Shown here: positions 1 through 18,973 of the stretch, piece after piece
Layout of the letters: every line of letters begins with the position of its first letter
Numbering within the stretch: position 1 is the first letter of the stretch
Assembly: GCA_036001625.1 (NCBI GenBank)
Contig: DASYUD010000006.1
Coordinates: 4,841 to 68,840 of the forward strand
Source: Gaiellaceae bacterium
GTDB lineage: Bacteria; Actinomycetota; Thermoleophilia; Gaiellales; Gaiellaceae
Direction: 5' to 3'
DNA length: 64,000 nucleotides
Position numbers and translations under genes: made by a program
The notes under the pieces: generated by a model
What the model was told of the DNA's origin: nothing
The model's input: only the letters and a program-made list of their open reading frames with translations
The model's database searches: none

Positions 1-452
1 TCACGCGGGAACACCGTCCGGTGCACGAGGAACCGCTCGTACGCCGACTCGCCTTCCGGGTACCGGTACGCAAAGGTCTCGAGCGCGCGCGCCCGCTTGC
101 CGCGCGCGTCCCCGATCGCGGCCAGGAACAGCGACTGCATCACCCACGGGCTTGCGCGGTCGAGCAGGTAGGCGCAGGTAACGAGGACGGCGTCCTCCGA
201 CGGCGGCCCCGCGGGCAGCTCCCACGCCTTCGGGAAGAGGACGGCCGGCCCGTACTGCATCGAGCCGATCACGGCGCCGTCGTCGTCTCGGTAGACGGCG
301 CCCCAGGCGCCCCAATCGCTCTCGGCTTTCTCGATCCAGCGGCGCTTGTCGATCGAGCGATTGCCTTTCGACTGCCACCAGATGCACTCGTGACAGACGG
401 TCGGAGCCTCCTGGAGCGTTAGGCCGGTCAACCCGGCGACCCTTGTGCTCAC
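1..452 (-). CDS. conserved hypothetical protein, partial (3' end off window); possibly GNAT-like acetyltransferase (tentative)
   Basis: Own minus-strand translation from GTG at 452: VSTRVAGLTGLTLQEAPTVCHECIWWQSKGNRSIDKRRW...AYERFLVHRTVFPR, open to position 1. Composition is protein-like, unlike R-rich shadow ORFs 1..387(-) and 21..422(+). GTGA overlap with the upstream stop at 449-452. Confidence 0.5.
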   Translation of the reverse strand, partial: MSTRVAGLTGLTLQEAPTVCHECIWWQSKGNRSIDKRRWIEKAESDWGAWGAVYRDDDGAVIGSMQYGPAVLFPKAWELPAGPPSEDAVLVTCAYLLDRASPWVMQSLFLAAIGDARGKRARALETFAYRYPEGESAYERFLVHRTVFPR

Positions 453-1264
453 GAACCCAATTCTACGAGCCGGAGCTCCGTCGCCTCCGGCCGGGCGAAG
501 AAGCGGAAGGGGACGAAGGTCGTCCCGAGCCCCGTCGAGACGTGGAGGACCCCGCCCGGCCGGCGGTAGAGCCCCTCCGCGTACGTCCAGCGCAGGTGCG
601 CCAGCCGCAGCTTGCCGCGCCCGTACGGGATGCAGATCTGGCCTCCGTGCAGGTGGCCGGCGAGGACGAGGTCGAAGACCCCGGCGGGCACCTTGTCGAT
701 CACGTTCGGGAAATGGCAGAGGAGGATGCGGAGGTCGGCCTCGGCATCGGCCAGCCGCTCGGGCCTCGCCGTCCGCCGCCAGTACGAGCGCGGGTCGACG
801 CCGACGATCTGCACGCGCCGGCCGCGCAGCTCGACGGTTCGCGAGTCATCGCCCAGGACTGTCGTGGCGCCGAGGTCGAGGACCGCGCTCGGCTTCGAGA
901 ACGGGTCGCGCGTGACGGCGAAGTCGTGGTTGCCGAGGACGGCGAACGAGCTCGGCAGCCGCGCGAGGAGCGCGCGCAGCCTCGGCTCAGCCCGCGGGCG
1001 CGAGAGGAGGTCGCCGCTGATCAGCACGAGATCGGGCCGCCGCGCGACCGCCCAGTCGACGGCGCGCTCGACGGCCCGGGCGCCTCGAGAGGGGAAGCCG
1101 AGGTGAAAGTCCGAGAGATGGACGACGCGAAGCCCGTCGAGCTCCGCCGGGAGCCGCGACAGGGGCACCTCGAGCGTCCGGAAACGCACCCAGCCCGCTT
1201 CGAAGTGGCCCCAGGCGGCGGCAGCAGCCCCGACCGCTCCGAGCGTAACGATGGCTCCCTTCAC
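449..1264 (-). CDS. membrane-anchored metallophosphoesterase (calcineurin-like)
   Basis: ORF 449..1384(-). Motifs VVHLSDFHLG, ISGDL, GNHDF, GHLHGG. N-terminal hydrophobic segment. Start set to in-frame GTG at 1264 (VKGAIVTLGAVGAAAAAW); the upstream part is R-rich. Confidence 0.8.
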   Translation of the reverse strand: MKGAIVTLGAVGAAAAAWGHFEAGWVRFRTLEVPLSRLPAELDGLRVVHLSDFHLGFPSRGARAVERAVDWAVARRPDLVLISGDLLSRPRAEPRLRALLARLPSSFAVLGNHDFAVTRDPFSKPSAVLDLGATTVLGDDSRTVELRGRRVQIVGVDPRSYWRRTARPERLADAEADLRILLCHFPNVIDKVPAGVFDLVLAGHLHGGQICIPYGRGKLRLAHLRWTYAEGLYRRPGGVLHVSTGLGTTFVPFRFFARPEATELRLVELGS

Positions 1265-1278: not shown

Positions 1279-1618
1279 GTGCCTGGCGCGCACCTGGACC
1301 TCGAGCGGATCGACCTCTTCGGCCACTCGGCCGGCGGCTTCGTGTCGATGGTCTACGCCTCGGCCTACCCGCACCGAGTTGCACGGCTCGTGCTCTGCGG
1401 CACCTTCACTCGGTTCACGGACGACTGGCGTCGCCGGTTCGAGCGGTTCCTCGGCGAGCGGGACGAAGACCCTCGGTTCGCGGACGCGGTCGCCGCCCGG
1501 CGCGCGCGGGAGCAGAACCCCCCGGACGACGAAGAAGATCCTGCCCGGCGTCGGCCACATGCCGTGGGTCGAGGATCCCGACGCATTCCGCCGGGAGCTG
1601 CTCGCCTTCCTGGCGTGA
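1279..1618 (+). pseudogene. alpha/beta-hydrolase remnant (5'-truncated, frameshifted, internally shortened)
   Basis: Frame 1 has the nucleophile elbow region LDLERIDLFGHSAGGFVSMVYASAYPHRVARLVLCG. The catalytic-His C-terminus KILPGVGHMPWVEDPDAFRRELLAFLA* is in frame 2 (tail of ORF 443..1618). About 90 N-terminal residues are missing. Confidence 0.7.
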
Positions 1619-1629: not shown

Positions 1630-2511
1630 TCAGACTTCGAGCTTGTCCAGCACCGGCTGCACGGAGACGACGTGCCGCTTGAACTTGAGCTCGGAGTCCT
1701 CGAGCCCCGCCGCCACCCCGATCAGCTGCGACAGGTGGAGGATCGGGAGCCGGAAGTCGCGGCCCGTCGATGCGCACAGCTTCGACTGCCAGGCGTCGAG
1801 CGAGAGGTGGCACAGCGGGCACGGCGTCACCATGGCGTCGGCGCCGGCCTCCACGGCCTGCTCGATCGGCTGGAGGAGCTCGCCGAGCGCCGTCGCCTCG
1901 CGCGCCTGGATGATCGGAAAGCCGCAGCACTTGATCTTCGCCGGGTAGTCGACCGGCTCGCCGCCGCAGGCCTCGATGATCGCCTCGAGCGACCAGGGCC
2001 GGTCGGGGTCCTCGAAGCCGAGGATCTTCGACGGCCGGAGAATCTGGCAGCCGTAGAACGGCGCCACGCGCAGCCCCTTCAGCCCCTTGTGCGCCACCGC
2101 CTTCAGCCGCTCGAAGCCGTCGCCCTCGGCGATCAGCCAGAGCAAGTGCTTCACCTCGATGTTCCCGCCGTAGGGCGGCACGCCGACCGTCTCCAGGTTG
2201 CGATTCACACGCTCGCGTAGCTCGTCGTCATTCTTGAGCTGCCAGCTTGCCTGCCGCAGGTTGAGCGTGCACACGTTGCAGATCGTCATCAGCGTGTCGG
2301 CGCCGGTTTGCTCGCCGTAGGCAAGGATGCGCGCGTTCAGGTGGAGGTAGTAGTCGGGCTCGGCCTCGTGGATGTCGCCGGCTCCGCAGCAGGTGACCGA
2401 TTCGAGCTCCTCGAGCTCGAGCCCGAGCTTCGGCGCGAGCGCCTGCGTCGAGGAGTCGAGCTCCTTCGCCGAGAGCGAAGCAAGGCAGCCCTTGTAGTAG
2501 GCGACCTTCAA
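1630..2511 (-). CDS. CCG-domain (HdrB/SdhE-like) subunit of succinate dehydrogenase/fumarate reductase
   Basis: ORF 1630..2745(-). Two CCG motifs (SVTCCGAGDIHE; KIKCCGFPIIQ). TTG start at 2511 preceded by GGGAGGA. Lies downstream of sdhB. Confidence 0.8.
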   Translation of the reverse strand: MKVAYYKGCLASLSAKELDSSTQALAPKLGLELEELESVTCCGAGDIHEAEPDYYLHLNARILAYGEQTGADTLMTICNVCTLNLRQASWQLKNDDELRERVNRNLETVGVPPYGGNIEVKHLLWLIAEGDGFERLKAVAHKGLKGLRVAPFYGCQILRPSKILGFEDPDRPWSLEAIIEACGGEPVDYPAKIKCCGFPIIQAREATALGELLQPIEQAVEAGADAMVTPCPLCHLSLDAWQSKLCASTGRDFRLPILHLSQLIGVAAGLEDSELKFKRHVVSVQPVLDKLEV

Positions 2512-2577
2512 TGATCCTCCCGGTAACGCTGATGGATGCCCGGTTCGCGAGCACCAAGCGATGCAAGGACGCAGGGA

Positions 2578-2603
2578 GCGCCCGTACTGGACAGTACGGG
2601 CGC
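2578..2603. other. perfect 26-nt palindrome in the sdhB to CCG-subunit spacer
   Basis: gcgcccgtactg-ga-cagtacgggcgc read directly, within the 160-nt intergenic gap 2512..2671. Confidence 0.7.
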
Positions 2604-2671
2604 GACGGAGGACGCCGCAGCGCGCCGCGTGATCGCGGGCCGGGCGCCACCAAGTGTTGCCGGGAGGATCA

Positions 2672-3742
2672 TCAGCTCTCCGCCTCCGGCTGCTCTTCTG
2701 CCTTGACGTGCTCGATGCGGGCGAGGCCCCGCTCGCCCTGGACAATGCCCGCGGCGCCGTCGCGTCCCTGCTGCTTGACCAGGTCGTAGAGAGCGCGCGC
2801 CTCGTCGACCTCGGCCGCGACGTGGATCGGCCCCGGCGGCGGCACCTTGCCGCGGCGGGCGAGGCTCAGCGCGAAGCGCGTCTCCTTGAGCGCGCCGAGG
2901 ATGCCCTGCGTCTTCGGGACGAGCTCGGTCTCGCGCAGCCAGCCGCTCGTCTTCGACGAGATGACGAACCACTTCGCGTGCTTCGCCCCCATGTCGTGGT
3001 CTATCCCTTGCTTGATCGACTCCGCGCCGAGCTTCGCGATCGCGTCGCGCGGGTCGACCCCCTTCGGGCAGCGCTCGTTGCAGAAATAGCACCGCGTGCA
3101 GTCCCAGATGCCGTGCTCGCCGTTCAGGTCGTTCAGCCGCTCGACGTCCGCCTCGTCGCGCGGGTCGCCGACGAAGCGCATCCCCTTGGCGAGCGCGGCC
3201 GGGCCGAGGAAGTCCGGGTCGGCCTCCATCGCGTTGCACTCGGAGACGCAGCAGCCGCACATGATGCAGAGCGACTCCTTGTGGATGACGTTCATCGCCT
3301 TCTGCGAGATGACGCGCTCGCGCTCGGCGACCTCGTCGTAGCCGGGGTCGAGCCAGGGCTTGACGGCGCGGATCTTGTCCCAGAACGGATCCATGTTGAC
3401 GACGAGGTCCTTCACGATCGGCAGGTTCCCCATCGCCGAGATGACCGGGACGTGGCCAGCCTCGACGATCGGCTTCATCCGCTCCTTGCAGGCGAGGATC
3501 GCCCGGCCGTCCATGCGCATCCCGCAGGAGCCGCAGATCATCATCCGGCAGCTCTTGCGGTAGGCGAGCGTCCCGTCGTGGCGGTCCTTGATGATGTCGA
3601 GGACGTCGAGCAGGCACGCCCACTCGGGCGCCTCGACCTCGTAGGTGCGCAGCTCGCGCTCGCCCGTCTCGCCGTCGACGCGCCAGATCTTGAGCGCGAC
3701 GTCCATCGTCCGGTCCCCGGTGTGGACCGCGGCCTCGGTCAC
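2672..3742 (-). CDS. sdhB: succinate dehydrogenase/fumarate reductase iron-sulfur subunit with C-terminal extension
   Basis: Motifs CRMMICGSCGMRMDG, CIMCGCCVSEC, CTRCYFCNERCP. 356 aa versus ~250 typical. GTGA overlap with the upstream lipoprotein gene. Confidence 0.9.
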   Translation of the reverse strand: MTEAAVHTGDRTMDVALKIWRVDGETGERELRTYEVEAPEWACLLDVLDIIKDRHDGTLAYRKSCRMMICGSCGMRMDGRAILACKERMKPIVEAGHVPVISAMGNLPIVKDLVVNMDPFWDKIRAVKPWLDPGYDEVAERERVISQKAMNVIHKESLCIMCGCCVSECNAMEADPDFLGPAALAKGMRFVGDPRDEADVERLNDLNGEHGIWDCTRCYFCNERCPKGVDPRDAIAKLGAESIKQGIDHDMGAKHAKWFVISSKTSGWLRETELVPKTQGILGALKETRFALSLARRGKVPPPGPIHVAAEVDEARALYDLVKQQGRDGAAGIVQGERGLARIEHVKAEEQPEAES

Positions 3743-4626
3743 TGCCCCTGCTCGATTAGCTTCATCAGGTCGAGCACCTGGCGTGCCGGGGGAAGCTGGA
3801 TCTCTACGGCCGCACCGAAGTCGTAGAGCTCCATCGCCATGTCCATCTCCATCGGCCGACGCTCACCGGTGTTCGCGTCCAGAACTCGCATCTCGTAGCC
3901 GAACGTCATCCTGCGGACAATCTGGTCGTCGCCGATCCAGACGTCGGCCGGGACCGTCTTCACGCCCGCGAGCTCGATCAGGCGGTCGATCGTCTTCCTC
4001 ATCGCCGGCCGCTTGCCTGGGGCCACGAGATCCGGATACTTCTCGAAGTCGATCGTCGCGTGATAGTGCGTCGTCTCGACTCCGCGGACCGTCTCGCGAC
4101 CCTTCTTCTCCACTTTGCCACTGGCTGCGCGGAGGTAATCGACGGCCTGAGCAGGATTGCCCTGACCGAGCTGCATGAACTGTTGAAAGTCGATTCCCAT
4201 TTGCCGGCCGAGCTTCTGAAAGTCGAGCTTGATCCAGGGCTTCGCCGTATGAAGCGCGCGCGTCATGGCCGGGACCCGCATATAGGTGACGAGCCGGCCG
4301 TTCGAGAAGTCGATTACCTGCTCGCCGCGCCAGGCTTCGGGGCCACCCAGGGCGCCGTTGCTTGCGTCTGCAAGCTCCGACATGTCCATCGTGATCCGCC
4401 CGCGTTTTGCGCGGTTGTCCATGATTCCCGAGGAAGTGCTCGTCGCGCCTCCCGGAAGATCGGGGGAACGCGTCGTGATCGTCATGTCGATCCGGACGCT
4501 GGATACTTTCGCCGTCTCGGTCGCAGCGTTCGCCACCGGATCCAGCGAAACGGTGTCGCCGGTGCCGCAAGCGGCCAGCGCAAGTGCCGCGAGAATCGAG
4601 CCCGCGAAACAGATGAGCCGCGTCAC
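3739..4626 (-). CDS. lipoprotein, paralog 3 of 3 (LolA/LppX-like fold is a guess)
   Basis: MTRLICFAGSILAALALAAC lipobox. C-terminal half resembles the two upstream paralogs. GTGA overlaps at both ends. Confidence 0.8.
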   Translation of the reverse strand: MTRLICFAGSILAALALAACGTGDTVSLDPVANAATETAKVSSVRIDMTITTRSPDLPGGATSTSSGIMDNRAKRGRITMDMSELADASNGALGGPEAWRGEQVIDFSNGRLVTYMRVPAMTRALHTAKPWIKLDFQKLGRQMGIDFQQFMQLGQGNPAQAVDYLRAASGKVEKKGRETVRGVETTHYHATIDFEKYPDLVAPGKRPAMRKTIDRLIELAGVKTVPADVWIGDDQIVRRMTFGYEMRVLDANTGERRPMEMDMAMELYDFGAAVEIQLPPARQVLDLMKLIEQGQ

Positions 4627-5504
4627 GGCTGTGTCGTCACCCCCGTTTCCGTCTTCAGCTCGCTCTCGGCGCCCACGCAGAGCTGCAGCCCGCCTTCACC
4701 GTTCTCCTTCTCGTTCTGAAGGCGCGTTGGCGGGTTGCACTCGCCGACGAGCAGCTGAGTGAACTCGTCCTCCGTGATGACCTGATCGGCCGGCGGGGGC
4801 TTTACGTCGACCGCGACCCCGTAGTCGAAGACGTCGAGGGTGAGCTCGCTCGACGGACCCTGGCCCTCGGGAATCTCGATCTGCACGCGCCGCAGGCGCC
4901 CCTCGCCGTCGATCCAGAGATCGAACGGAACTTGCTTCTGGTCGACCCAGTACGCACTGAACATCTCGCGAACGTCCTCGCGATCCTTCTTGGGCACCGC
5001 ATCAACGGCGCGATCGAGGTCGAGCCTGGCGCGATAGTGCAACGCTTCCACGCCGCGAACCTCCCCGGAGTCGACCTTCTCGACCTCGCTCGCAGCGCGC
5101 AGGAAGCGGAGGAGATCGGCTGGGGTACTCGCAAAGGGCGGAAAGAGCTCGCCTTCGCCCCTTGAAGACTTGAGCCAGCGCTTCCCCGTCTTGGTATGGA
5201 AGGCGCCGAGATTCATGTACGACGCATCCTCCGTGTAGAGAACCTGGATCGAGCCCTCGTCTTCGCCCTCTTTGGCTCCGCTCGTGCTGGCGAACCGGCC
5301 GACCGAGCGCTCGTAGTCATAGACGCCGCCGAATCGGTCTGCGGGTTCGTTCTCTTGACGCACCACGAGCTCGAGGCGCGACGACCTCGCGGCACTCGTC
5401 TTGTCCGCCGAATCCGCGACTGCGTTGCTCGAAGACCGCGCGCCGCAGCCTGCGAGCGCAAATGCGGCGAGAAGCGAGCCCGAGACCCAGCCGAGACGGC
5501 TCAT
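4623..5504 (-). CDS. lipoprotein, paralog 2 of 3
   Basis: MSRLGWVSGSLLAAFALAGC lipobox. Shares ...VDVKPPPADQVITEDE...ELKTETGVTTQP with paralog 1. ATGA overlap at 5501-5504. Confidence 0.8.
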   Translation of the reverse strand: MSRLGWVSGSLLAAFALAGCGARSSSNAVADSADKTSAARSSRLELVVRQENEPADRFGGVYDYERSVGRFASTSGAKEGEDEGSIQVLYTEDASYMNLGAFHTKTGKRWLKSSRGEGELFPPFASTPADLLRFLRAASEVEKVDSGEVRGVEALHYRARLDLDRAVDAVPKKDREDVREMFSAYWVDQKQVPFDLWIDGEGRLRRVQIEIPEGQGPSSELTLDVFDYGVAVDVKPPPADQVITEDEFTQLLVGECNPPTRLQNEKENGEGGLQLCVGAESELKTETGVTTQP

Positions 5505-6289
5505 GGCGTCGTCGTCACCCCCGTTCCTGTCTTCAGCTCGCCCTCCACCACGTCGCCCCCAATGATGCGATCCAACTCGTCCTCCGTGATGACCTCGGCG
5601 GCCGGCGGTGGTTCGACGTCGACCTTCACTCCGAAGTCGAAGAAGTCGAAGGTAATCGCCCCGGGCCCCTCTCCGTAGTCGGGCATGCGAAGCCTGCGGA
5701 CGAGACCCTCGCCATCGATCCAGGCATCGACGATGACATCTCTCTCCTTGCCGGCGGGGGCATAGTCGGTCGCGCTGTCACCGAGCTTCTTCTCGTCCAG
5801 GTGGGCGCGGTAGTGCTTCGCGGCGACGCCTCGGACGTCGTCCTTGCCGAGGACCTCGACCTCCTTGCTCGACTTCAGCAGCAGCCCCAAGACGCGATCC
5901 GGATTCGTCCCGCCCGGCACGGGTACCAGCGCCTCGACGGCGTCCTCGGGGTCGTAACCCTCCTCCTTCGTCCAGCGCATCTTCCCTTTGAGCATCCACC
6001 CCGAATAGATGGTCCGGCCGATGAAGCGCACCTCGAGCTCATCGCCAAAGGGATCAAAGTCCTCCGTCTCGCTCTCCGCCTGCATGACGAGCTTCCCTCG
6101 ATCGCGTTCGTAGTCGAAGACACCGGCGGCCGTGAAGAGGGTCTTCTCCCCGGCCGTCACCGTCATCTCCACGCGCGAGCTGCCCGCGTCCGCCATCGCG
6201 CTGGACGCATCGTCGAGCGCTCCGCCCTTCTGGGCGCCGCAGCCGGCGACGAGCGGTAGGACGAGCGCAAGTAGGAATACACGCCGCAT
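5501..6289 (-). CDS. lipoprotein, paralog 1 of 3
   Basis: Start at Met193 of ORF 5501..6865(-): [17 protein letters not shown] lipobox. Its ATG shares one base with the sdhA TGA (TGATG at 6289). Confidence 0.8.
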   Translation of the reverse strand: MRRVFLLALVLPLVAGCGAQKGGALDDASSAMADAGSSRVEMTVTAGEKTLFTAAGVFDYERDRGKLVMQAESETEDFDPFGDELEVRFIGRTIYSGWMLKGKMRWTKEEGYDPEDAVEALVPVPGGTNPDRVLGLLLKSSKEVEVLGKDDVRGVAAKHYRAHLDEKKLGDSATDYAPAGKERDVIVDAWIDGEGLVRRLRMPDYGEGPGAITFDFFDFGVKVDVEPPPAAEVITEDELDRIIGGDVVEGELKTGTGVTTTP

Positions 6290-7953
6290 CAGTACGTCCG
6301 TTCCTCGGGCTGCCATTTCGTAAGCGTTACCGGCTTCCAGTCCAGGACCGCACGGTCGGCGATCCAGCGCACGATCGTGTGCTTCAGGTAGTTCTCGTCG
6401 TCGCGTTCGGGGAAGTCGTGCGGGCGCGCGTGGGCGCCGCGGCTCTCCTTCCGGCCGAGACCCGAGACGACCATGCAGTCCGCGAGCTCGAGCGCCTGCG
6501 TCAGGTCGTTGTTGAAGACCTCGCCCTTGTCGTCGACGACGACGTTCTCGTAGCGCTCGCGCAGGTAGCCGACGATGCGTCCCTGCTCCTCCATCTCCTT
6601 CTCGCGCCGGAAGACACCGAAGTTCTCGTGCATCGTCTGCGCAAGCTCGTCCCGGATCTTCCACGGCCGCTCGCCCTCGCGCCGGTCGAGGAGCGTCTTC
6701 AGCTCGCGCTCGGCGTCGGCCTCGACCGAGGGCGGAACGGCCACGGTCGTGTGCGTCAGCGCCCAGTCGGCCGCCGCCCGCCCGGATCGCTTGCCGAACG
6801 TGATCGTCTCCATCAGCGCGTTTCCGCCCAGGCGGTTCGCGCCGTGGACGGAGACGCAGGCGCACTCGCCGGCCGCGTAGAGCCCATCGAGCTCCGTCTT
6901 CCCGTCGATATCCGTGTCCACACCGCCCATGTGGTAGTGGGCGCCGGGACGGACGGGGATCGGCTCGTGGATCGGGTCGACGCCGGCGAAGACCATCGAC
7001 AGCTCGCGCGTCCCGTGCAGGCGTTCCAGGATCTTCTCCGCCCCGAGGTGGCGCAGGTCGAGGAGGACGTTGCCGTCGATGCCGCGGCCCTCGTCGATCT
7101 CGGTCTGCTCCGCGCGCGAGATCACGTCGCGGCTCGCTAGCTCCATCGCGTTCGGCGCGTAGCGCTTGAGGAAGCGATCGTCCTCGGAGTTGAGGAGGTA
7201 CGCGCCCTCGCCGCGGCAGCCCTCGGTGATGAGCACTCCAGTCGGAGCGAGCGTTGTCGGGTGGAACTGCATCATCTCCATGTCCTCCAAGGGCACGCCC
7301 ACCCGGAGGGCCATGGCCATCCCGTCGCCCGTGCAGGCATAGGCGTTCGTCGTCCCCGCGTAGAGCCTGCCCGCGCCGCCCGTGGCGAGGATCACGGTCT
7401 TGGCGCCGATCGTCTTCAGCCCGCCGTTCAGGAGATCCCAGGCGATCACGCCCTGGCAGCGGTCGTCGTCGACGACGAGCTTCCAGGCGAAGAACTCCTC
7501 GTAGACCTGGAGATCGCGCTTCATCACCTGCTCGTAGAGGACGTGGATGAGAACGTGGCCGGTGATATCGGCCGCGTAGGCCGTGCGCGGCTCGCCGGCG
7601 GCGCCGAACGGGCGCTGCGCGATGCGGCCGTCCTCGGTTCGCGAGAAGACGGCGCCCCAGTGCTCGAGCTGGTAGACGTCGTCGGGCGCCTCGTCGCAGA
7701 GCACCTGGATCGCGTCCTGGTCGCCCAGGTAGTCGGAGCCCTTGACCGTGTCGTAGGCGTGCTTCTCGGGGTCGTCCTCGGACGCGTTGCCGAGGGCCGC
7801 GTTGATCCCGCCCTCGGCCGCGCCCGAGTGGCTGCGGACCGGGTGGATCTTCGAGATCAACGCGACGTCGGCGCCCTGATCGTGGGCTTCGATGGCTGCG
7901 CGCATGCCGGCCAGCCCGGCGCCGACAACAAGCAGGTCGTGCGTCGCTTCCAC
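6289..7953 (-). CDS. sdhA: succinate dehydrogenase/fumarate reductase flavoprotein subunit
   Basis: [18 protein letters not shown] fold, [14 protein letters not shown], 554 aa. No Tat/Sec signal visible. Confidence 0.95.
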
Positions 7954-8142: not shown

Positions 8143-9150
8143 TCAGGGACAGCTCCGATTCCGCTCGCCGCCGTAGCAGCGGTCGCGGCCGGGGCCGCCG
8201 TTCAGCCGATCGCGGCCGGGCCCACCGTCGAGCCGGTCGGCGCCTGCGCCGCCGGACACCACGTCGTTCCCCTGCTCGCCGCGGAGCAGGTCGGGCCCGC
8301 CGCCGCCGACGACGACGTCTGCTCCTCCGTGGCCGTTCAGCGAGTTCGGCCCCGCATCGCCGGTCAGGTGGTCTGAGTAGTGCGAGCCGAGGACGTTCTC
8401 GATGCCGACGAGGCTGTCGGAGCCCCAGCCGACGGCGGTGCCGCGGGCCAGGTTGACGTTCACCCCGGCCGGCGCCCAGCAGTAGCAACCGATGTCGCGT
8501 CCCGGGCCTCCGTCGAGGACGTCGTTCCCCGCGTCGCCGTCGAGGAAGTCGTCTCCCTCGCCGGCCGTGAGGCGGTCGTCGCCCGGCTGTCCGTCGAAGT
8601 AGTTGTCGTTGGCGTCACCCTCGAGCGTATCTGCGAAGGGCGAGCCGACGAGAGCTTCGACGTTGACGAGCGTGTCGGTGCCGAAGCCCGTGGCCGTACC
8701 GGTCGCAACGCTCGCCTGAACGGGGCCAGGCGCGTCGAGGAAGAAGACGATGTCGAGGTCGTCGTCCGAGCCGTCGAGCCTGTCGTCGCCGGCGTCCGCG
8801 ACGAGCCCGTCCATGTCCGGTCCTCCGTCGACGGTGTCGTTGCCCTCGCCGCCGCAGATGAGGTCGATGCCGTCGAGACCGTAGATCGTGTCGTTCCCCG
8901 TCAGGCCGACGATCACGTCGTCGTCGGATGTCCCGACGATCGTGTCGTCGCCCGGCGTCCCGACGATTGTCGGGGCCTCGTCCAGGCACTTCAGCACCTG
9001 ACTCGCCGATGCGCCCGACGTCGCGAGCGCAGCGGCCGCCAGGACGGCGAGGAAGAGCACGACCTTGCCGGCTAGCAGTGCCCGGTGAGGCACTGGGATG
9101 GATGTTCCCTGCATGACCTGCCTCCTTTGAGTTGGGGATTCGGTGGTCAT
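8143..9150 (-). CDS. secreted calcium-binding protein with hemolysin-type (RTX-like GGxGxD) repeats
   Basis: Signal-like N-terminus (LLAGKVVLFLAVLAAAALATSGASA). Many repeats: GDDTIVG, GNDTIYG, GEGNDTVDGG, GDDFLDGDAGNDVLDGGPG. Confidence 0.85.
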   Translation of the reverse strand: MTTESPTQRRQVMQGTSIPVPHRALLAGKVVLFLAVLAAAALATSGASASQVLKCLDEAPTIVGTPGDDTIVGTSDDDVIVGLTGNDTIYGLDGIDLICGGEGNDTVDGGPDMDGLVADAGDDRLDGSDDDLDIVFFLDAPGPVQASVATGTATGFGTDTLVNVEALVGSPFADTLEGDANDNYFDGQPGDDRLTAGEGDDFLDGDAGNDVLDGGPGRDIGCYCWAPAGVNVNLARGTAVGWGSDSLVGIENVLGSHYSDHLTGDAGPNSLNGHGGADVVVGGGGPDLLRGEQGNDVVSGGAGADRLDGGPGRDRLNGGPGRDRCYGGERNRSCP

Positions 9151-9492: not shown

Positions 9493-12288
9493 ATGAGCTC
9501 GCTGGGACACAACCTGCAATCCGTCGACCTCGTCGGCCGCGAGGCGGAATGCGGCCGCATCGATGCGCTGCTCGAAGCCGCGCACGCCGAGCAGAGCGGC
9601 GCCCTCCTCGTCCGCGGCGAGGTGGGAATCGGCAAGACCGCGCTGCTGCGCTACGCGCTCGAGCAGGCAGGCTCGATGACAGTGCTACGCGCCCGCGGCA
9701 TTGAGTCCGAGTCCGAGCTCGCCTTCGCCGCTCTCGGTGACTTCTTCCGCCCCGCAGTCGATCGTCTGAAAGCGATTCCCGAGCCGCAGGCGGCCGCGCT
9801 CGCCGGTGCGCTCGCACTCGGTCCGCCGGCTCCCAGCGACCGCTTCACAGTCTGCGCCGCCACCCTCAGCCTCCTCGCCGCCGTCGCCGAGGACGCGCCG
9901 GTGTTGGGCGTCATCGACGACGCGCAATGGCTCGACAGATCCTCGGCGGAGGCGCTCCTGTTCGCGGCTCGGCGGCTGGACTCGGAGGGCGTGGCGCTCG
10001 TCTTCGGCCTCCGAGAGGGCGAGGCGGGCCCGTTCGGCGCGAGTGATCTGGGCGAGCTGGTACTGGCCGGCCTCGACAACGATGACGCCCTCGAGCTGCT
10101 CTCGCGGCGCCTTGGCTACGAGCCGCCGCCGGCCGTTGCCGACCGTCTCGTCCGAGCGACCGAGGGAAACCCGCTCGCGCTCGTCGAGATTCCCACACTC
10201 CTCAGCGAACGCCAGCTGACCGGCGCGGAGCCGATGGAGGAGCCTCTGCCGGCTGCTCCGACCATCGAGCGCGCCTTTCTTCACCAGATCGAGGTGCTGG
10301 CGGCGGATACGCGGAAGGCGTTGCTCGTCGCGGCCGCGAGCGAGTCTGGGCGCCTCGACGAGATCGCTACGTCGCTCAGAGCGCTCGGCGTCGATCCTCA
10401 GGCTCTCGACCCGGCCCAGGATGCACGCCTCGTCTTCGTCGAGGAAGGAGTGCTGGAGTTCCGGCACCCGCTCCTCCGGGCGGCCGTGTACCACGAGGCC
10501 CCGGCGGGGGCGCGTCAGGCCGCCCACGAGGCGCTCGCCGAAGCCTCGGCGGAGGAGCGAACCGACCGGCGCGCATGGCATCTCGCCGCGGCTGCGACGG
10601 CCCTCGACGAGGAGGTCGCCACGGCACTCGAAGGGGCTGCGCTCGAGGCGCGCGGGCGCGGCGGCCACGCCGAGGCGGCTCTTGCGCTCGAGCGCGCTGC
10701 GCGGCTCACCGGCAACGAGGACGAGCGGGCCCGACGGCTGTTCGAGGCGGCCGGCGACGCCCGGATCGCGGGCCGAGCCGACCGAGCCCTCGAGCTTCTC
10801 GACGAGGCCCTCGCCGCGACCCGGGAGCCGCTCGCCCGCGCGAGGATCGAGCACCTGCGAGGAGCCGTCGAGATGTGGTTCGGCACCCCGATGAGCGCAC
10901 ACGAGTTGCTCGTCGAGGAGGCGGGGCGGATCGCGGAGCTCGATCCAGGCAAAGCGGCGCGGATGCTCGCCGACGCTTCGTTCGCCTGCTTCATGGCCGC
11001 CAAGATCGGAGCCGGTCTCGAGACGGCGGAGCGGGCGCAGGCGATTGCCGCGAAAGCCGACGAGACGACCCAGGCTCACGCCGCAGGCGTCCTCGGCGTC
11101 GCGCTTCTCCTCAGCGGACGAATGGGCGAGGCGCTCCCGCTTCTCGAGCGCTTCGAGCCCCACCTCGAGGCGATCGACTTCGAACGGCCCCGCCAGCTCG
11201 TCACCCCTGCCCAGGTCCTCACCTGGCTCGAGGAGTACGAGCGGGCCCGGAAGTTCTTCACGCGCATGGTCGAGGCCGCGCGGGGTCAGAGCGCGCTCGC
11301 CTTCCTCTCCTACCCTCTCGCCGGCCTCTCCGAGCTCGATTTCCGCACCGGCAACTGGCCCGCGGCCTACGCGGGAGCCGCCGAAGCGGTCCGAATCGCG
11401 GACGAGACAGGCCAGCACGCGACGCTTGCCTTCAGCCTCGTCTGCCTGGCCCGAGTGGAAGCGGCGCAGGGGCGTGAGGAGGACTGCCGGGCCCACATCG
11501 ACCGCGCGCTCGAGATCGCGCCGCTGCGGATCGGCGCGGTCGTCGCCTACGCGGTCACGACGCTGGGCTTGCTGGAGCTCGGGCTCGGTCGGAGCGAGGA
11601 GGCGATCGGCCTCTTCGAGGGGCTCGCCCCTCAGGTCGAGGAGCGTGGGCTCGGGGAGCCCGCGGTCATCCAGTGGCAGCCCGACCTGATCGAGGCGTAC
11701 GCGCGCGCCGGCCGCATCGAGGACGCCCGGCGCGAGCTCGACGTCTTCGAGCGCCGGGCGCAGAGCACCGAACGCAACTGGGCGCTCGCGGCCGCGGCGC
11801 GCTGCCGGGGCCTGCTCGCCTCGGACGAGGAGTTCGAGCAGCACTTCACTCGAGCCCTCGAGCTGCACGGGCGCACGCCCACCCCGTTCGAGCTAGCGCG
11901 CACGGAGCTCTGCCTCGGCGAGCGGCTGCGGCGCACGCGGCGCCGGTCCGACGCACGCGAGCCGCTCCGCTCGGCGCTCGAGGCCTTCGAGCGACTCGGC
12001 GCCGACCCGTGGGCCGAGCGCGCGCGGATCGAGCTGGGCGCGAGCGGCGAGACCGCGCGCCGCCGTGACCCGTCCGCTTCCGATCAGCTCACGCCGCAAG
12101 AGCTCCAGGTCGCGCTCGTCGTGGGCCAGGGAGCGACAAACCGGGAAGCGGGCGCCGCGCTCTTCCTCAGCCCGAAGACGATCGAGGCTCACCTCGGCCG
12201 CATCTACCGGAAGCTCGACGTGCGCTCGCGCACCGAGCTCGCGCGCATGCTCGCCAGCGAGGGAGCGCTGGCCGAGACGGCTGCCTAG
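9493..12288 (+). CDS. large ATP-binding LuxR-family regulator (LAL/MalT-like STAND: P-loop NTPase + TPR-like + C-terminal HTH)
   Basis: Walker A GEVGIGKT. C-terminal LTPQELQVALVVGQGATNREAGAALFLSPKTIEAHLGRIYRKLDV. 931 aa. Confidence 0.9.
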   Translation: MSSLGHNLQSVDLVGREAECGRIDALLEAAHAEQSGALLVRGEVGIGKTALLRYALEQAGSMTVLRARGIESESELAFAALGDFFRPAVDRLKAIPEPQAAALAGALALGPPAPSDRFTVCAATLSLLAAVAEDAPVLGVIDDAQWLDRSSAEALLFAARRLDSEGVALVFGLREGEAGPFGASDLGELVLAGLDNDDALELLSRRLGYEPPPAVADRLVRATEGNPLALVEIPTLLSERQLTGAEPMEEPLPAAPTIERAFLHQIEVLAADTRKALLVAAASESGRLDEIATSLRALGVDPQALDPAQDARLVFVEEGVLEFRHPLLRAAVYHEAPAGARQAAHEALAEASAEERTDRRAWHLAAAATALDEEVATALEGAALEARGRGGHAEAALALERAARLTGNEDERARRLFEAAGDARIAGRADRALELLDEALAATREPLARARIEHLRGAVEMWFGTPMSAHELLVEEAGRIAELDPGKAARMLADASFACFMAAKIGAGLETAERAQAIAAKADETTQAHAAGVLGVALLLSGRMGEALPLLERFEPHLEAIDFERPRQLVTPAQVLTWLEEYERARKFFTRMVEAARGQSALAFLSYPLAGLSELDFRTGNWPAAYAGAAEAVRIADETGQHATLAFSLVCLARVEAAQGREEDCRAHIDRALEIAPLRIGAVVAYAVTTLGLLELGLGRSEEAIGLFEGLAPQVEERGLGEPAVIQWQPDLIEAYARAGRIEDARRELDVFERRAQSTERNWALAAAARCRGLLASDEEFEQHFTRALELHGRTPTPFELARTELCLGERLRRTRRRSDAREPLRSALEAFERLGADPWAERARIELGASGETARRRDPSASDQLTPQELQVALVVGQGATNREAGAALFLSPKTIEAHLGRIYRKLDVRSRTELARMLASEGALAETAA

Positions 12289-13179: not shown

Positions 13180-13232
13180 GCGCCTCACACGCAGGTTAGG
13201 AGCGCGCGCTTGACAGTGGTAGAACGGGGACG

Positions 13233-16200
13233 GTGCAAGAAGTCGAGTTCCGCGTCCTAGGCCCATTCGAGGTACGGGTGGAGGGGCGGCCGCTCGAGCT
13301 GAACAGGCGAAAGCAGCGCTCCCTCCTGGCGTTGCTGTTGCTTCACGCAGGCGAGGTCGTCTCCACCGACCGGCTCGTTGAGGAGCTCTGGGCGGGGAGG
13401 CCTCCGAAGACCGCCGTCAGCTCGCTTGGGAACCTCCTTTCCGCTCTTCGAAAGGAGCTCGGGCCGCAGGCCGTGCTCACTCGTCCGCCCGGCTACATGC
13501 TCGACGTCGATCCCGACCGGGTAGATCTGCACCGATTCGAGCGGCTGGTCGCCCAGGCGGCGGAGGGTGGGGACGCCGGGAGGCGCGCAAGCCTCCTGCA
13601 CGAGGCGCTCGGGCTCTGGCATGGCCCGCCCTTGGCCGACCTGGCCTTCGAGCCTTTCGCCCACGTCGAGATCGCCCGCCTGGAGGAGCTCCGCACCGCC
13701 GCCCGCGAGGAGCTGTTCCAGGCAGAGCTCGAGCTCGGCCGCCACTCGAAGCTCGTCGGGGAGATCGATGCTCTCGTCGCCGAGCACCCCTTGCGGGAGC
13801 GGTTGCGCGGCCAGCTCATGCTCGCGCTCTACCGCTCGGGCAGGCAGGCGGAGGCGCTCGACGCCTACCGGCGGGCCCGCGAGACGCTCGTCGGGGAGCT
13901 CGGCATCGAGCCTTCGCCCGAGCTGCAGCGCCTGGAGCAGTCGATCCTTAGACACGATCGCGAGATCGACCTCCCCAAGAGGGCGATCGCCGAAGCCACT
14001 TCCGGAGAGGAGCGGCGGAAGACGGTGACGATCCTCTTCACCGACATCGTCGACTCCGCGAGCTTCGGCGCCGCGCTCGACCCAGAAGTCTTGCGCATGG
14101 TGATGCGGCGCTATTTCGACACTGTTCGCACGGTCGTCGAGCGCCACGGCGGCACCCTCGAGAAGTTCATCGGCGACACCGCGATGGCGGTCTTCGGGGT
14201 CCCGCAGATGCACGAGGACGACGCGCTCCGGGCGGTGCGCGCGGCGAACGAGCTCCGCGAGGCGCTCATCGGCCTGAACGCCGACCTCGAGCGAGACCAC
14301 GGGCTCGCGATCCAGATCCGGACCGGCATCAACACGGGAGAGGTGCTCGCGGGAGACGCCGCTTCGGGCCAGCCGTTTGCGACCGGGGCCGCCGTCACGG
14401 TCGCGATGCGGCTCCAGCAGGCCGCGCTTCCCGGCGAGACTCTGCTCGGCGACACGACGCGAACCGTTCTCCGCGAGGCTGCGATGTCGGAGCCGGTCGA
14501 GCCGATCGACGCCGGCGGCTCGCTCGGCTCGGTTCAGGCGTTCCGCCTCCTGGCGCTAGGCGAGAGCACCGGCCTGCGTCCCCCGACAGGCGCCCCTCTC
14601 GTCGGTAGGCAGGAAGAGCTCGCCCGCTTGGATAGCGCCTTCGAGTCCGTCCTGGACAAGCGTCGCAGCCGGGTCGTCGTCATCCTCGGCGAGGCGGGGA
14701 TCGGCAAGACACGGCTGACCTCGGAGTTCGTCTCCTCGCTCGGTGCGGAGGCGACGGCGCTCGTCGGACGGTGCGTCTCCTACGGAGAGGGGGCCACGTA
14801 CCTGCCTCTGGCCGAGATCGTGCGACAAGCTGCGCCGACACGGCCTCAGGCGACGATCGCAGCCCTCCTCGAGGGCGACGAGCATGCGGCGCTCATCGCC
14901 GAGCGAATGTCCGAGCTCACGGGCCAGGCCGAGGGACTCGCACCGACGGGTGAGCTGTTCTGGGCGGTCCGGCGCTTCTTCGAGGCGCTCGCGGCAAGGC
15001 GGCCGCTCGTCGTAGTCCTCGAGGACGTCCACTGGGCGGAGCCGACGCTGCTCGACCTGGTCGAGTACCTCGGGGCCTGGACCTCGGACGCGCAGGCCCT
15101 CGTCCTTTGCATCGCACGGCCGGAGCTTCTCGAGAAGCGTCCCGGTTGGGAGTCGAGCACCGAGACGATCACACTCGACCCGCTCTCCGGAGCCGAGACG
15201 GGCACCCTCCTCGCCGAGCTTGCCGGGGAGACGGAGCTCTCAGAGAAGACGCGCGCTCGAATCGTCGCGGTCGCCGAGGGAAACGCGCTGTTCGTCGAGC
15301 AGCTGCTCGCCTACATCACGGATGATGTCGGGCCGGACGCACTCGAAGAAGCCGTCCCCGCTTCGATCGAGGCGCTGCTGGCCAGCCGTCTGGACAGCCT
15401 CGAGCCGGAGGATCGCGCCGTCCTCGAACGGGCAGCCGTGGTCGGGAAGGACTTCGCGCGCAGCGCGGTCCGCCACCTTTCGCCCCCGGAGACGCTGGCG
15501 ACCGTCGACGGCCGCCTCGTCACGCTCGAGCGAAGGGGACTGATCCACGCGCGGCGCTCCCGTGTGTCACCCGAGGATGAGTTCCGCTTCCACCACGTTC
15601 TCATCCGAGATGTCGCGTATGCCGGCATCACAAAGGAGCACAGGTTCGATCTCCACGAGCGGCACGCCTCTTGGCTCCAGCAAAGGAACGAGGCCGACGA
15701 GCTCATTGGATACCACGCCGAGCAAGCGCATCGCTATCGCGGCGAGCTTCGCCCCGGTGATCCGGAGCTCGCGCGGCTTGCTGGGTGGGCGGGCGACCAC
15801 CTTGCAGCAGCGGGGATTCGTGCGTGGAAGCGTGCCGATACCCCGGCGGCGGTTAACCTCCTCGGCCGGGCGTCCGCGCTCCTACCCCCGGGGATCGCGC
15901 GCGGCGAGGCTCTTTGCGAGCTCGCGATCGCACTGAGGACCGCAGGTCATATCGATAAGGCCGAGGCTGCGCTGCAGCAGGCGATTACAGAGTCCGTCGG
16001 ACATGACCGGCGGCTCGAGCTGCGCGCCAGGGTCGAGCTTGCGCAGGTCGGGCTCCTCGTCGATCCGGAAGGACAGTCCGCAGAGCTCCTTGATCTTGCG
16101 GCGAGTTCTATCCCGCTCTTCGAAGAGCTCGGGGACGACCGCGCTCTGGGTCGAACATGGCTTCGGGTGGCTTACGTGGTCGGAGGCGTCCAAGGCGACA

Positions 16201-17024
16201 ACAAGGCCAGGCAGGACGCAGCCGAGCGCGCCCTCGTTCATTACCGCCGCTCGGGCTGGTCTCCGGCGACATGCCTGGGCGAGCTCGGAGCCGCGCTCTA
16301 CTTCGGGCCGACCCCTGCTGCGGAGGCCATCCGGCGCTGCGAGGAGCTCCTCGAGGATGCCGTCAGCGACCGAGCGTGCGAGGCCAACCTGCTCGTGTTC
16401 ATGGGAGGGCTCGAGGCGATGCGTGGGGAGTTCGATCAAGCCCGGGAGCTTGTCGCGGGCGCGCGGAGCACCTTCGAGGAAATCGGATTGACGGCGGCTA
16501 TCGCAAACTTCTGCGGGGCGATAGGCGGCGCGATCGAGATGGCGAACGAGGACTACGCAGCCGCGGCGGTCATCCTCCGCGAGAGTTGCGACAGCCTCGC
16601 GCAGATGCATGAGCGCGCCTTGCTCGCGAGCCGAGCCGCAGAGCTGGCTGAAGCTCTTTGTGCGCTCCGGCGCTTCGAGGAAGCTGACCAGTGGGCTCGT
16701 CTGTCGGAAGAGCACGCAGCGGGCGACGACATGGACGCGCAGATGGCCTGGCGCGCAGCCGGCGCCGAAGTCAAGGCCGGGACCGGCGTTCTCTTGCAAG
16801 CGGAAGAGCTGGCCCGGGATGCGGTGCTGCTCGCCGGAAAAACAGACATGCTCAACCGTCGAGGGAGGACGTTGCTCGTACTCGCGGAGGTTCTCAGGCT
16901 CCAGGGCCGTGACGAGGAGGCTGCGCAACAAGTTGGGGACGCGAGGCGTGTCTTCGAGCGGAAGGGCAACGTCGTGGCTGCGAGTAGGGCACGCGCACTG
17001 CTGGACGAGCTAGTCCTGCCCTAG
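13233..17024 (+). CDS. SARP (OmpR-type wHTH + BTAD) fused to class III adenylate/guanylate cyclase, P-loop NTPase and TPR-like domains
   Basis: FRVLGPFEVRVEGRPLEL. BTAD: ALYRSGRQAEALDAYRRARETLVGELGIEPSPEL. Cyclase: VTILFTDIVDS, FIGDTAMAVFG, IRTGINTGEV. Walker A GEAGIGKT. 1263 aa. Confidence 0.9.
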   Translation: MQEVEFRVLGPFEVRVEGRPLELNRRKQRSLLALLLLHAGEVVSTDRLVEELWAGRPPKTAVSSLGNLLSALRKELGPQAVLTRPPGYMLDVDPDRVDLHRFERLVAQAAEGGDAGRRASLLHEALGLWHGPPLADLAFEPFAHVEIARLEELRTAAREELFQAELELGRHSKLVGEIDALVAEHPLRERLRGQLMLALYRSGRQAEALDAYRRARETLVGELGIEPSPELQRLEQSILRHDREIDLPKRAIAEATSGEERRKTVTILFTDIVDSASFGAALDPEVLRMVMRRYFDTVRTVVERHGGTLEKFIGDTAMAVFGVPQMHEDDALRAVRAANELREALIGLNADLERDHGLAIQIRTGINTGEVLAGDAASGQPFATGAAVTVAMRLQQAALPGETLLGDTTRTVLREAAMSEPVEPIDAGGSLGSVQAFRLLALGESTGLRPPTGAPLVGRQEELARLDSAFESVLDKRRSRVVVILGEAGIGKTRLTSEFVSSLGAEATALVGRCVSYGEGATYLPLAEIVRQAAPTRPQATIAALLEGDEHAALIAERMSELTGQAEGLAPTGELFWAVRRFFEALAARRPLVVVLEDVHWAEPTLLDLVEYLGAWTSDAQALVLCIARPELLEKRPGWESSTETITLDPLSGAETGTLLAELAGETELSEKTRARIVAVAEGNALFVEQLLAYITDDVGPDALEEAVPASIEALLASRLDSLEPEDRAVLERAAVVGKDFARSAVRHLSPPETLATVDGRLVTLERRGLIHARRSRVSPEDEFRFHHVLIRDVAYAGITKEHRFDLHERHASWLQQRNEADELIGYHAEQAHRYRGELRPGDPELARLAGWAGDHLAAAGIRAWKRADTPAAVNLLGRASALLPPGIARGEALCELAIALRTAGHIDKAEAALQQAITESVGHDRRLELRARVELAQVGLLVDPEGQSAELLDLAASSIPLFEELGDDRALGRTWLRVAYVVGGVQGDNKARQDAAERALVHYRRSGWSPATCLGELGAALYFGPTPAAEAIRRCEELLEDAVSDRACEANLLVFMGGLEAMRGEFDQARELVAGARSTFEEIGLTAAIANFCGAIGGAIEMANEDYAAAAVILRESCDSLAQMHERALLASRAAELAEALCALRRFEEADQWARLSEEHAAGDDMDAQMAWRAAGAEVKAGTGVLLQAEELARDAVLLAGKTDMLNRRGRTLLVLAEVLRLQGRDEEAAQQVGDARRVFERKGNVVAASRARALLDELVLP

Positions 17025-17108: not shown

Positions 17109-17258
17109 TCAGGGTCCGCCGCCGCCGCCGTCGTTGCTCAGCGGCTGGCTCTGGCCAGGCGCCGGCATCGCGTCCGCGTGACCCGACTGGACCGGCGAGG
17201 CGAGAGCGACGAGCGCCGCCGTCATGGCCGCGATCGAGATGAGAATCTTCTTGCCCAT
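17109..17258 (-). CDS. 49-aa secreted peptide with Gly5 C-terminus
   Basis: Own translation: MGKKILISIAAMTAALVALASPVQSGHADAMPAPGQSQPLSNDGGGGGP*. AAGGAGGTG lies 5 nt before the ATG. Terminator hairpin downstream. Confidence 0.65.
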   Translation of the reverse strand: MGKKILISIAAMTAALVALASPVQSGHADAMPAPGQSQPLSNDGGGGGP

Positions 17259-17280
17259 TGCGCACCTCCTTTCTCGAGGC

Positions 17281-17356
17281 CAGGCTCGAGCGGAGGGGCA
17301 ACGGGGAGGTCACGGCCGGCTCATGGATCGCTAACGGCCCGTTTCTCTGCGTACCG
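17281..17356. repeat. 76-bp dispersed repeat, copy 2
   Basis: 73/76 identical to 12464..12539. Lies between the divergent peptide gene and pckA. Confidence 0.9.
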
Positions 17357-17401
17357 GTAAGATTCCGCGTCGCCGCCCGTTTCCCGAAGGAGCACGCCGC
17401 A

Positions 17402-18940: not shown

Positions 18941-18973
18941 AGGGAGCGCCACGGCGGGCGCGAATCCCGCTCC

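Follow-up and report, generated by a model that had tools for sequence, protein, structure and literature searches.

Why do genes for predicted lipoproteins lie inside the operon of a respiratory enzyme that probably faces the cytoplasm, and do their products belong to that enzyme? The question is raised by a stretch of 64,000 nucleotides (nt) from a Gaiellaceae bacterium (Gaiellales, Thermoleophilia; contig DASYUD010000006.1, positions 4,841 to 68,840), here called the window, in which three paralogous genes (lipo1, lipo2 and lipo3) separate sdhA from sdhB, the genes for the flavoprotein and iron-sulfur subunits of a succinate dehydrogenase (SDH). We lean towards the view that the three products are co-expressed accessory envelope proteins of the LprG/LppX type that would bind lipids, and not subunits of SDH, because more than half of the relatives examined run the same SdhABE enzyme without them and because lipoproteins and enzyme are placed on opposite sides of the membrane. 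A literature search for work linking such lipoproteins to the SDH of Gaiellales or to type-E SDH, or placing them inside an sdh operon, found none; the type-E enzyme and the lipoprotein family are known, whereas the operon layout is new.

Organization of the sdh operon

The open reading frame (ORF) listing and a direct reading of the strand gave the following order on the minus strand, in the direction of transcription (aa, amino acids):

sdhA, 6289..7953, minus strand: flavoprotein subunit, 554 aa, without signal peptide
lipo1, 5501..6289, minus strand: LprG/LppX-like lipoprotein, 262 aa, VAGC lipobox
lipo2, 4623..5504, minus strand: paralogous lipoprotein, 293 aa, lipobox ..FALAGC
lipo3, 3739..4626, minus strand: paralogous lipoprotein, 295 aa, lipobox ..LALAAC
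sdhB, 2672..3742, minus strand: iron-sulfur subunit, 356 aa, two CxxCxxCxxxC motifs and a long C-terminal extension
sdhB/sdhE spacer, 2512..2671, minus strand: 160-nt imperfect palindrome (hairpin), one copy of a dispersed element family
sdhE, 1630..2511, minus strand: HdrB-like protein with two CCG domains and 10 Cys, 293 aa, TTG start

The operon holds no further gene beyond sdhE, as a convergent gene comes next. An earlier note on this DNA, made from the sequence alone, had placed three lipobox-bearing paralogs between sdhA and sdhB and had claimed stop/start overlaps at four junctions. Coordinates and strand order were borne out, and direct reading returned the overlaps exactly: TGATG at 6289, where the sdhA stop and the lipo1 start share 1 nt, ATGA at 5501-5504 (lipo1/lipo2), GTGA at 4623-4626 (lipo2/lipo3) and GTGA at 3739-3742 (lipo3/sdhB). 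The GTG start of sdhB at 3742 adds 12 residues (TEAAVHTG/W) ahead of the region covered by the family models; since this extension is kept as protein in relatives, the lipo3/sdhB overlap is taken as real. The note had further described an HdrB/SdhE-like subunit with two CCG motifs after sdhB. Its identity stood, but the gene starts at a TTG at 2511, after GGAGGA, and not at the ORF limit of 2745, and it is uncoupled from sdhB by the 160-nt spacer (2512..2671).

Mapped internal promoters or terminators had been named as evidence that would speak against a single operon. A consensus scan of the operon for both gave no signal above chance, which is a weak test, since actinobacterial promoters match the sigma-70 consensus poorly. 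One messenger RNA (mRNA) would carry the lipoprotein genes together with sdhA and sdhB, and the downstream cistrons would be translated by re-initiation at the overlapping stop and start codons, co-translation being read from the overlaps only. If so, the lipoproteins would be made whenever SDH is made.

Family, predicted fold and export signals of the lipoproteins

All three proteins, which are 29-41% identical overall (lipo1 and lipo2, 40%; lipo1 and lipo3, 29%), scored above the 65-bit cut-off of the NCBIfam model NF053532 (SCO4651 family lipoprotein), with 94.2 bits for lipo1, 105.5 for lipo2 and 129.4 for lipo3, and are thereby placed in that family. With the Pfam family LppX_LprAFG (PF07161), only lipo2 gave a match, at 22.0 bits (E = 1.7e-4) and under the gathering cut-off of 24, while lipo1 and lipo3 gave none. 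At the level of the family, however, 56 of 82 members individually matched PF07161 at E < 0.01, and with a profile built from the 82, LprG of Mycobacterium tuberculosis was detected among PDB entries along its entire length (E = 1.4e-6). Given sub-cut-off Pfam scores together with these profile and family matches, we regard lipo1-3 as remote homologues of LppX/LprAFG and not as members of the curated Pfam family.

Structures were modelled for lipo3 and lipo1, lipo2 being placed in the same family by sequence. The AF2 model of lipo3 (pLDDT 88.8, pTM 0.84) had LprG as its top Foldseek match (7e-11), followed by LprF, LppX and LolA; that of lipo1 (pLDDT 82.0) likewise matched LprG best (2.7e-10), together with LppX. 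Both models show the LolA-like half-barrel fold, closest to LprG, LprF and LppX and next to LolA and RseB, with target-normalised TM-scores of 0.62-0.71. The guess in the earlier note that the paralogs might be LolA- or LppX-like is therefore upheld by the profile and structure searches that it had proposed: NF053532 was exceeded by all three, and LprG, LprF and LppX came out as the top folds.

The lipoboxes described in the note were also recognised, by pattern, in all three proteins: behind a positively charged n-region and a hydrophobic h-region stand VAGC with Cys17 (lipo1), LAGC with Cys20 (lipo2) and LAAC with Cys20 (lipo3). The same pattern was present in 35 of 37 complete, unbroken orthologues. 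In a single orthologue (L012, 6046..6843), the lipobox Cys is replaced by Ser (..LLVIGSGS..); this protein, whose 265-aa ORF is intact, keeps its hydrophobic signal and may be a secreted or signal-anchored variant; the remaining case of the 37 (L014_1) starts VALVVTLAALLAGCG and probably has a lipobox as well. The pre-lipoproteins would leave the cell by the Sec route and receive their lipid at the lipobox Cys. By analogy with LprG, which has a lipid pocket and acts from the outer membrane face (PMC10576003), they would then be displayed at the outer surface of the cytoplasmic membrane, with a cavity like that of LprG as the binding site for acylated lipids or other hydrophobic molecules of the envelope.

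The likeness to M. tuberculosis LprG (Rv1411c), LppX and LprF extends to the lipobox, to the best Foldseek fold, to a family profile that spans LprG and, for LprG, to co-transcription with a machine of the cytoplasmic membrane, which here is suggested by the gene overlaps. In contrast, identity to LprG/LppX is only 12-17%, and the proteins described here exceed these in length by about 60-90 residues and have additional helical inserts. Their partner in the operon also differs, being a respiratory dehydrogenase and not Rv1410, a transporter of the major facilitator superfamily (MFS): no MFS-type transmembrane ORF was found within 16 kb of the operon, and one relative (L089) has an MFS gene 1.9 kb downstream of sdhE. 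Further, unlike M. tuberculosis, the host is in all likelihood a monoderm without mycolates, and there would therefore be no mycomembrane to supply. With SCO4651 of Streptomyces coelicolor, the three proteins share the NF053532 model and the character of an actinobacterial lipoprotein to which no function is assigned. In the only mention of sco4651 found in the literature, this gene is counted among those of the Streptomyces sigma-E regulon for cell-envelope stress, where a link to SDH is not reported (PMC6767563), whereas the genes in the window lie inside an sdh operon.

A type-E-like SdhABE enzyme

SdhA matched Pfam FAD_binding_2 (6.6e-113) and Succ_DH_flav_C and reached 756 bits with TIGR01812, the sdhA/frdA subfamily model (cut-off 567); the His of its RSHS motif, for covalent binding of flavin adenine dinucleotide (FAD), is present. 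The absence of a twin-arginine translocation (Tat) or Sec signal, as claimed in the earlier note, holds because the sdhA ORF cannot be extended upstream: a stop codon precedes its first possible start. SdhB matched Pfam Fer2_3 and Fer4_8 and scored 226 bits with TIGR00384 (cut-off 88), its best full-length matches being PRK12577 and PRK12576, and it has a C-terminal extension as in type-E-like SdhB. It carries the two CxxCxxCxxxC motifs CIMCGCCVSECN and CTRCYFCNERCP, the second of which holds an extra, fourth Cys in the last cluster motif. Because of this residue, a second [4Fe-4S] cluster is predicted in place of the [3Fe-4S] cluster; the type-E enzymes are defined by a third SdhB cluster motif that holds a fourth Cys (CxxCxxCxxxCP; PMC2754724, PMC2680327).

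In SdhE, Pfam CCG was found in two stretches (6.8e-27), with the motif CX(n)CCGX(m)CXXC present twice, and the NCBIfam models MFR_anch_SdhE (1.3e-60) and HdrB (6e-59) both matched under their equivalog cut-offs. No hydrophobic segment, and so no transmembrane helix, was found in this protein, which is a putative monotopic anchor with a quinone site. A search for an SdhC/SdhD-like anchor, as an ORF with at least two hydrophobic segments, returned no candidate within 16 kb; the three ORFs flagged were two antisense ones, over sdhA or its upstream region, and one large cytoplasmic regulator. Among the six operon products, hydrophobic stretches were confined to the three signal peptides.

The locus thus combines the fourth Cys of SdhB, a two-CCG SdhE without transmembrane helix and the lack of a heme-b anchor within 16 kb, as the note had proposed for a type-E-like architecture. 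These traits and the gene order A-B-E are shared with the type-E succinate:quinone oxidoreductases, namely SdhABEF of Sulfolobus and Acidianus and the sdhABE products of cyanobacteria, Wolinella and Campylobacter. Unlike in the characterised enzymes, for which no such gene is described (PMC2754724, PMC2680327), one to three lipoprotein genes can stand between sdhA and sdhB in the present group. The second small subunit, SdhF, occurs only in archaeal type-E enzymes and is absent from the epsilonproteobacterial ones; in contrast to archaeal SdhABEF, no SdhF was recognised in the present operon, for which no SdhF model was used. Genes for citrate synthase, isocitrate dehydrogenase and phosphoenolpyruvate carboxykinase (PEPCK) lie within the same window. 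We conclude that the enzyme is a cytoplasm-facing, type-E-like SdhABE, which probably has its role in the tricarboxylic acid (TCA) cycle.

An orientation of the opposite kind, in which the SDH module is exported as in the periplasmic 8-methylmenaquinol:fumarate reductase (MFR) of Wolinella and Campylobacter by hitch-hiking on the lipoprotein signal, was also considered. The N-terminus of lipo1 (MRRVFLL) is RRxFL-like and resembles a twin-arginine motif, MRR is the consensus at the family N-terminus, and a periplasmic SdhABE has precedent (PMC2680327). Lipo2 and lipo3, however, have a single Arg only, and the lipoprotein signals, with 16-19 residues before the Cys, are typical of Sec and signal peptidase II and short for Tat. 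SdhA of MFR carries a Tat extension of about 40 residues and an Ala at the position of the covalent-FAD His (PMC2680327), whereas the present SdhA has no such extension and keeps the His. Scores with the MFR equivalog models were far under the cut-offs (MFR_Fp_SdhA 487 against 1100 bits, MFR_FeS_SdhB 186 against 600, MFR_anch_SdhE 205 against 500), and species without the lipoproteins have the same SdhABE. Both the MFR-like periplasmic enzyme and the Tat hitch-hiking were rejected on the missing extension, the short lipoprotein signals and the low MFR scores, and we regard an exported module as very unlikely.

Copy number of the lipoprotein gene among relatives

When SdhB was searched against a set with a single genome for each species, 80 loci were listed, all with SdhB at least 75% identical; those that bear an order- or family-level name are labelled Gaiellaceae or Gaiellales. 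At each locus, SdhA, SdhB, SdhE and the lipoprotein family were located, with a profile drawn from the family alignment, within flanks of up to 9 kb on each side. The 80 loci were scored as follows for the interval between sdhA and sdhB:

no lipoprotein gene, sdhA next to sdhB: 43 loci, with gaps of at most 216 nt (under 60 nt in 37 of the 43)
one lipoprotein gene: 34 loci
two lipoprotein genes: 2 loci
cut by the contig end, unscored: 1 locus

The 34 one-gene loci comprised 29 scored as single copy, two split in two pieces by a frameshift, two with a divergent or short gene and one cut by the contig end. Two of the 29 (L038 and L083) contain a homopolymer frameshift; the breaks in these four frameshifted loci are probably assembly errors, because sdhA is broken too in most of the assemblies concerned. 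Three copies, the maximum observed, were seen nowhere but in this window and an identical contig of the read archive, and metagenome contigs added further sdh-linked loci with one or two copies. Within the stored flanks, no family lipoprotein was found anywhere except between sdhA and sdhB, and no remnant of a deleted lipoprotein gene was found in the sdhA-sdhB gaps of about 200 nt in L041, L051 and L080. The closest homologues of the lipoproteins came from Thermoleophilia metagenomes. In the corresponding search with SdhE, all 120 matches listed were at least 75% identical, so this search is uninformative on other orders, as is the SdhB scan, whose listed loci were all close relatives too.

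The earlier note had allowed that relatives might carry the paralogs at unrelated loci only. Instead, the same sdhA-sdhB site recurred in the survey, with one or two copies. That the lipoprotein genes form part of the SDH operon accordingly held as to position in many relatives but not as a fixed trait, the copy number ranging from 0 to 3 with 43 of 80 loci having none. The genome paper of Gaiella occulta gives its SDH as three consecutive locus tags (Gocc_1693-1695) and leaves lipoproteins unmentioned, which would fit an operon without the lipoprotein gene.

The lipoprotein family is large, with 19,848 clusters at 50% identity (E <= 1e-3). Five family members that are not sdh-linked (31-38% identity) were looked up and all lay at unrelated loci: one of Solirubrobacteraceae near a toxin-antitoxin pair, others, including one of Thermoleophilaceae, between an ogt-like methyltransferase gene and a DUF480 gene, and another between groEL and a chlorite-dismutase-like gene. 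As these five members from outside the Gaiellales-type sdh loci have other surroundings, the family is not dependent on SDH.

Evolutionary history and selection

In the SdhB tree, loci with and without the lipoprotein gene were interleaved, and several sister pairs consisted of one of each kind. Further, the lipoprotein tree mirrored the SdhB clades, and lipoprotein and SdhB distances were strongly correlated over 27 single-copy loci (Mantel r = 0.81; none of 2000 permutations was as high). The simplest history would be a single old insertion, inherited in place and deleted many times. On this account, residence in the operon would predate the divergence of the sampled Gaiellaceae, with duplication in the lineage of the window and repeated deletion elsewhere.

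Within the clade of the window, three paralog types were distinguished, each with orthologues in other species and in an order that differs between species; the triplet therefore represents old paralogs kept together and not a recent triplication. Two footprints of duplication were seen. In L003, two lipoprotein genes are separated by a leftover piece of the sdhA 3' end (about 350..620), and L004 and L005 have a 35-aa ORF at the same position; this is the footprint of a tandem duplication of a unit made of the sdhA 3' end and the lipoprotein gene. The second is in the window, where the lipo1/lipo2 (5501..5545) and lipo2/lipo3 (4623..4665) junctions are near-identical for some 40 nt at the ends of lipo1 and lipo2, despite an identity of only 40% between the proteins. 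This shared stretch, GAGCTGAAGACrGrAACGGGGGTGACGAC..CCrTGA, encodes the tail ELKTxTGVTTxP and holds a Shine-Dalgarno (SD)-like GGGGGTGA for the next cistron. Such repeats are plausible substrates for unequal recombination that alters copy number.

Selection was estimated from the ten pairs of genomes that lie closest together (SdhB identity of 87% or more). The ratio of nonsynonymous to synonymous substitution rates (dN/dS) was 0.20-0.51 for the lipoproteins against 0.06-0.17 for SdhB in the same pairs, and lipoprotein dN was 3-18 times higher than that of SdhB. The G+C content at third codon positions (GC3) was 0.81-0.84 in the lipoprotein genes (3739..6289) compared to 0.93-0.97 in sdhA, sdhB and sdhE (1630..3742 and 6289..7953), a gap that recurs in relatives of the window's clade and is smaller in other clades. 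The lower GC3, and the many long spurious ORFs of high-GC DNA, could suggest decaying pseudogenes or chance ORFs. We give this explanation next to no credence and rejected it, as all three proteins score above the curated NF053532 cut-off, dN/dS lies below 1, the lipo3 and lipo1 models fold confidently, the lipoboxes are conserved and the family is of the size given above. Judged from these comparisons, the lipoprotein genes are real, under purifying selection and fast-evolving, as surface proteins often are.

Relationship between the lipoproteins and SDH

Several observations would fit lipoproteins that act, as the earlier note had speculated, as functional partners of the type-E SDH, either as outer-leaflet carriers or buffers of menaquinone or lipid, or as envelope-side acceptors reached through the quinone pool. 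About 45% of related species keep them at this place in the operon, their genes are translationally coupled to sdhA and sdhB, and in characterised relatives the LprG-like fold encloses a hydrophobic cavity for a ligand (PMC10576003). Moreover, an enzyme without an integral-membrane subunit might need help with access to lipid or quinone. On the other hand, 43 of the 80 related species have the same SdhABE and no operon lipoprotein, the copy number is unstable (0 to 3), and a nonsynonymous rate 3-18 times that of SdhB is unlike that of a tightly interacting partner. SdhABE also has no export signal while the lipoproteins are extracytoplasmic, which leaves the membrane between them, and family members at unrelated loci are independent of SDH. 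We consider a functional partnership of this kind unlikely.

Joint encoding of such proteins is seen in the extracellular electron transfer locus of Listeria, in which the cytoplasm-facing dehydrogenase Ndh2 is encoded together with the surface lipoprotein PplA and linked to it through the quinone pool. The likeness, which is an analogy only, lies in a cytoplasm-facing dehydrogenase and an extracytoplasmic lipoprotein being encoded together. PplA, in contrast, binds flavin mononucleotide (FMN) and has a different fold, and no flavinylation or quinone-biosynthesis gene is present here.

Alternatively, the lipoprotein cistrons might act in cis, their co-translational export by way of the signal peptide tethering the mRNA to the membrane so that SdhB and SdhE are made near their site of assembly. 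This role would fall to sdhC and sdhD, which encode membrane proteins, in operons of the classical kind. In line with such tethering, nothing is as constant as the signal peptide and the position, whereas the mature domains have a mean identity of only about 36%, the operon encodes no other membrane-targeted product, and the L012 orthologue has lost its lipobox Cys yet keeps a hydrophobic signal and an intact ORF. However, purifying selection acts on the mature domains (dN/dS 0.2-0.5), which also have a confident fold, so that the lipoproteins themselves matter, and over half of the species have no such gene in the operon. A tethering role in cis seems to us quite improbable. When both ideas are taken as one, with the lipoproteins as a lineage-specific accessory module of SDH, be it as extracytoplasmic binders of menaquinone or membrane lipid that would adjust the quinone or lipid surroundings of the monotopic enzyme or as membrane-tethering cistrons that would localise the synthesis of SdhB and SdhE, we still consider the proposal unlikely.

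The reading that we prefer, of co-expressed accessory lipid-binding proteins of the envelope, has points that weigh against it. The insertion has stayed at its exact site across much of an order, and coupling puts the translation of sdhB downstream of three lipoprotein cistrons; each of the two goes beyond what a random passenger needs and could reflect a functional tie to SDH. The signal peptides were judged by pattern alone. The SdhB tree was midpoint-rooted, without an outgroup, which makes a single gain followed by losses parsimonious but not proven. Finally, relocation rather than loss of the gene in the no-copy species would weaken the case for dispensability, the survey covering flanks of up to 9 kb.

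A dispersed palindrome between sdhB and sdhE

The sdhB-sdhE spacer (2512..2671), which is inserted precisely where the stop of one gene meets the start of the other, folds into a single long hairpin, with a minimum free energy (MFE) of -99.4 kcal/mol and z = -6.6. Its 5' arm begins at the sdhB stop, and its 3' arm pairs with the SD sequence (GGAGGA) and the TTG start of sdhE; the hairpin probably modulates sdhE translation. Most relatives are without the spacer, their sdhB and sdhE overlapping by 1-4 nt, and inserts of 157-160 nt with a conserved apex were present in a few scattered species (L003-L005, L029, L050 and L063). A conserved 21-nt core was found in at least 120 soil metagenome contigs (L094-L213), in none of which it adjoins sdh genes. 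The 30 copies that were folded formed imperfect palindromes of about 160-170 nt; copies were nearly always intergenic, preferentially just past the 3' end of a gene on the same strand.

The apex is conserved throughout this family (..GTCGCGCCCGTA..TACGGGCGCTCCCTGCGTCCTTG..), and GGAGG/CCTCC is present at the termini. Copies also occur at the sdhA-sdhB junction of two loci without a lipoprotein gene (L051 and L080), and a third locus (L041) has a related palindrome with similar arms. A search of the spacer against Rfam matched no family. The spacer has the look of a structured intergenic element of the ERIC or MITE kind that belongs to high-GC soil Actinomycetota. A 54-aa ORF within it was tried as an SdhF-like subunit and rejected, as the spacer is a dispersed palindromic element that is absent in most relatives.

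Neighbouring genes

Convergent with sdhE, at about 1279..1618 on the plus strand, lies an alpha/beta-hydrolase gene that is apparently split over two frames, with the GHSAGG nucleophile motif in one frame and the C-terminus ..HMPWVEDPDAFRRELLAFLA in the other. It may be frameshifted or truncated; relatives have a short Abhydrolase gene (171-192 aa) at the same place. Directly upstream of the operon, the minus-strand gene at 8143..9150 encodes a protein of 335 aa in which a hydrophobic segment at the N-terminus is combined with six stretches of RTX calcium-binding nonapeptide repeats (Pfam HemolysinCabind, 5e-40), an unusual product beside genes of central metabolism.

Two large regulators are encoded further on, both on the plus strand. 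The 931-aa protein of 9493..12288 has a counterpart in the relative L002 that carries AAA_16 and a GerE/LuxR domain, and the 1274-aa protein of 13200..17024 combines Trans_reg_C, BTAD, an adenylate/guanylate cyclase domain and AAA_16. The PEPCK gene (17243..18940) is followed at once by a gene for a XerC/D-type tyrosine recombinase (18941..19819), and the citrate synthase and isocitrate dehydrogenase genes lie within 4 kb after the recombinase (21386..23599). In the relative L093 (1..3281), two integrase genes adjoin PEPCK directly upstream of sdhA; set against the recombinase beside PEPCK in the window, this arrangement suggests that the region between PEPCK and sdhA has been rearranged in the present genome.

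Significance

How a type-E complex II without a membrane-spanning subunit is attached to the membrane and gains access to quinone is still poorly understood. If the lipoproteins were an accessory module of SDH after all, complex II would gain an extracytoplasmic lipoprotein partner, or the operon layout a role in assembly; to our knowledge, neither has been described. Because close relatives within this widespread soil lineage have 0, 1, 2 or 3 copies, they offer a natural experiment on the relation between envelope lipoproteins and a cytoplasm-facing respiratory enzyme. If the lipoproteins have no influence on SDH, which we hold likely, the locus would be a clear case of an unrelated gene long resident in an essential, translationally coupled operon, and recombination between the repeated junctions appears to be what alters its copy number.

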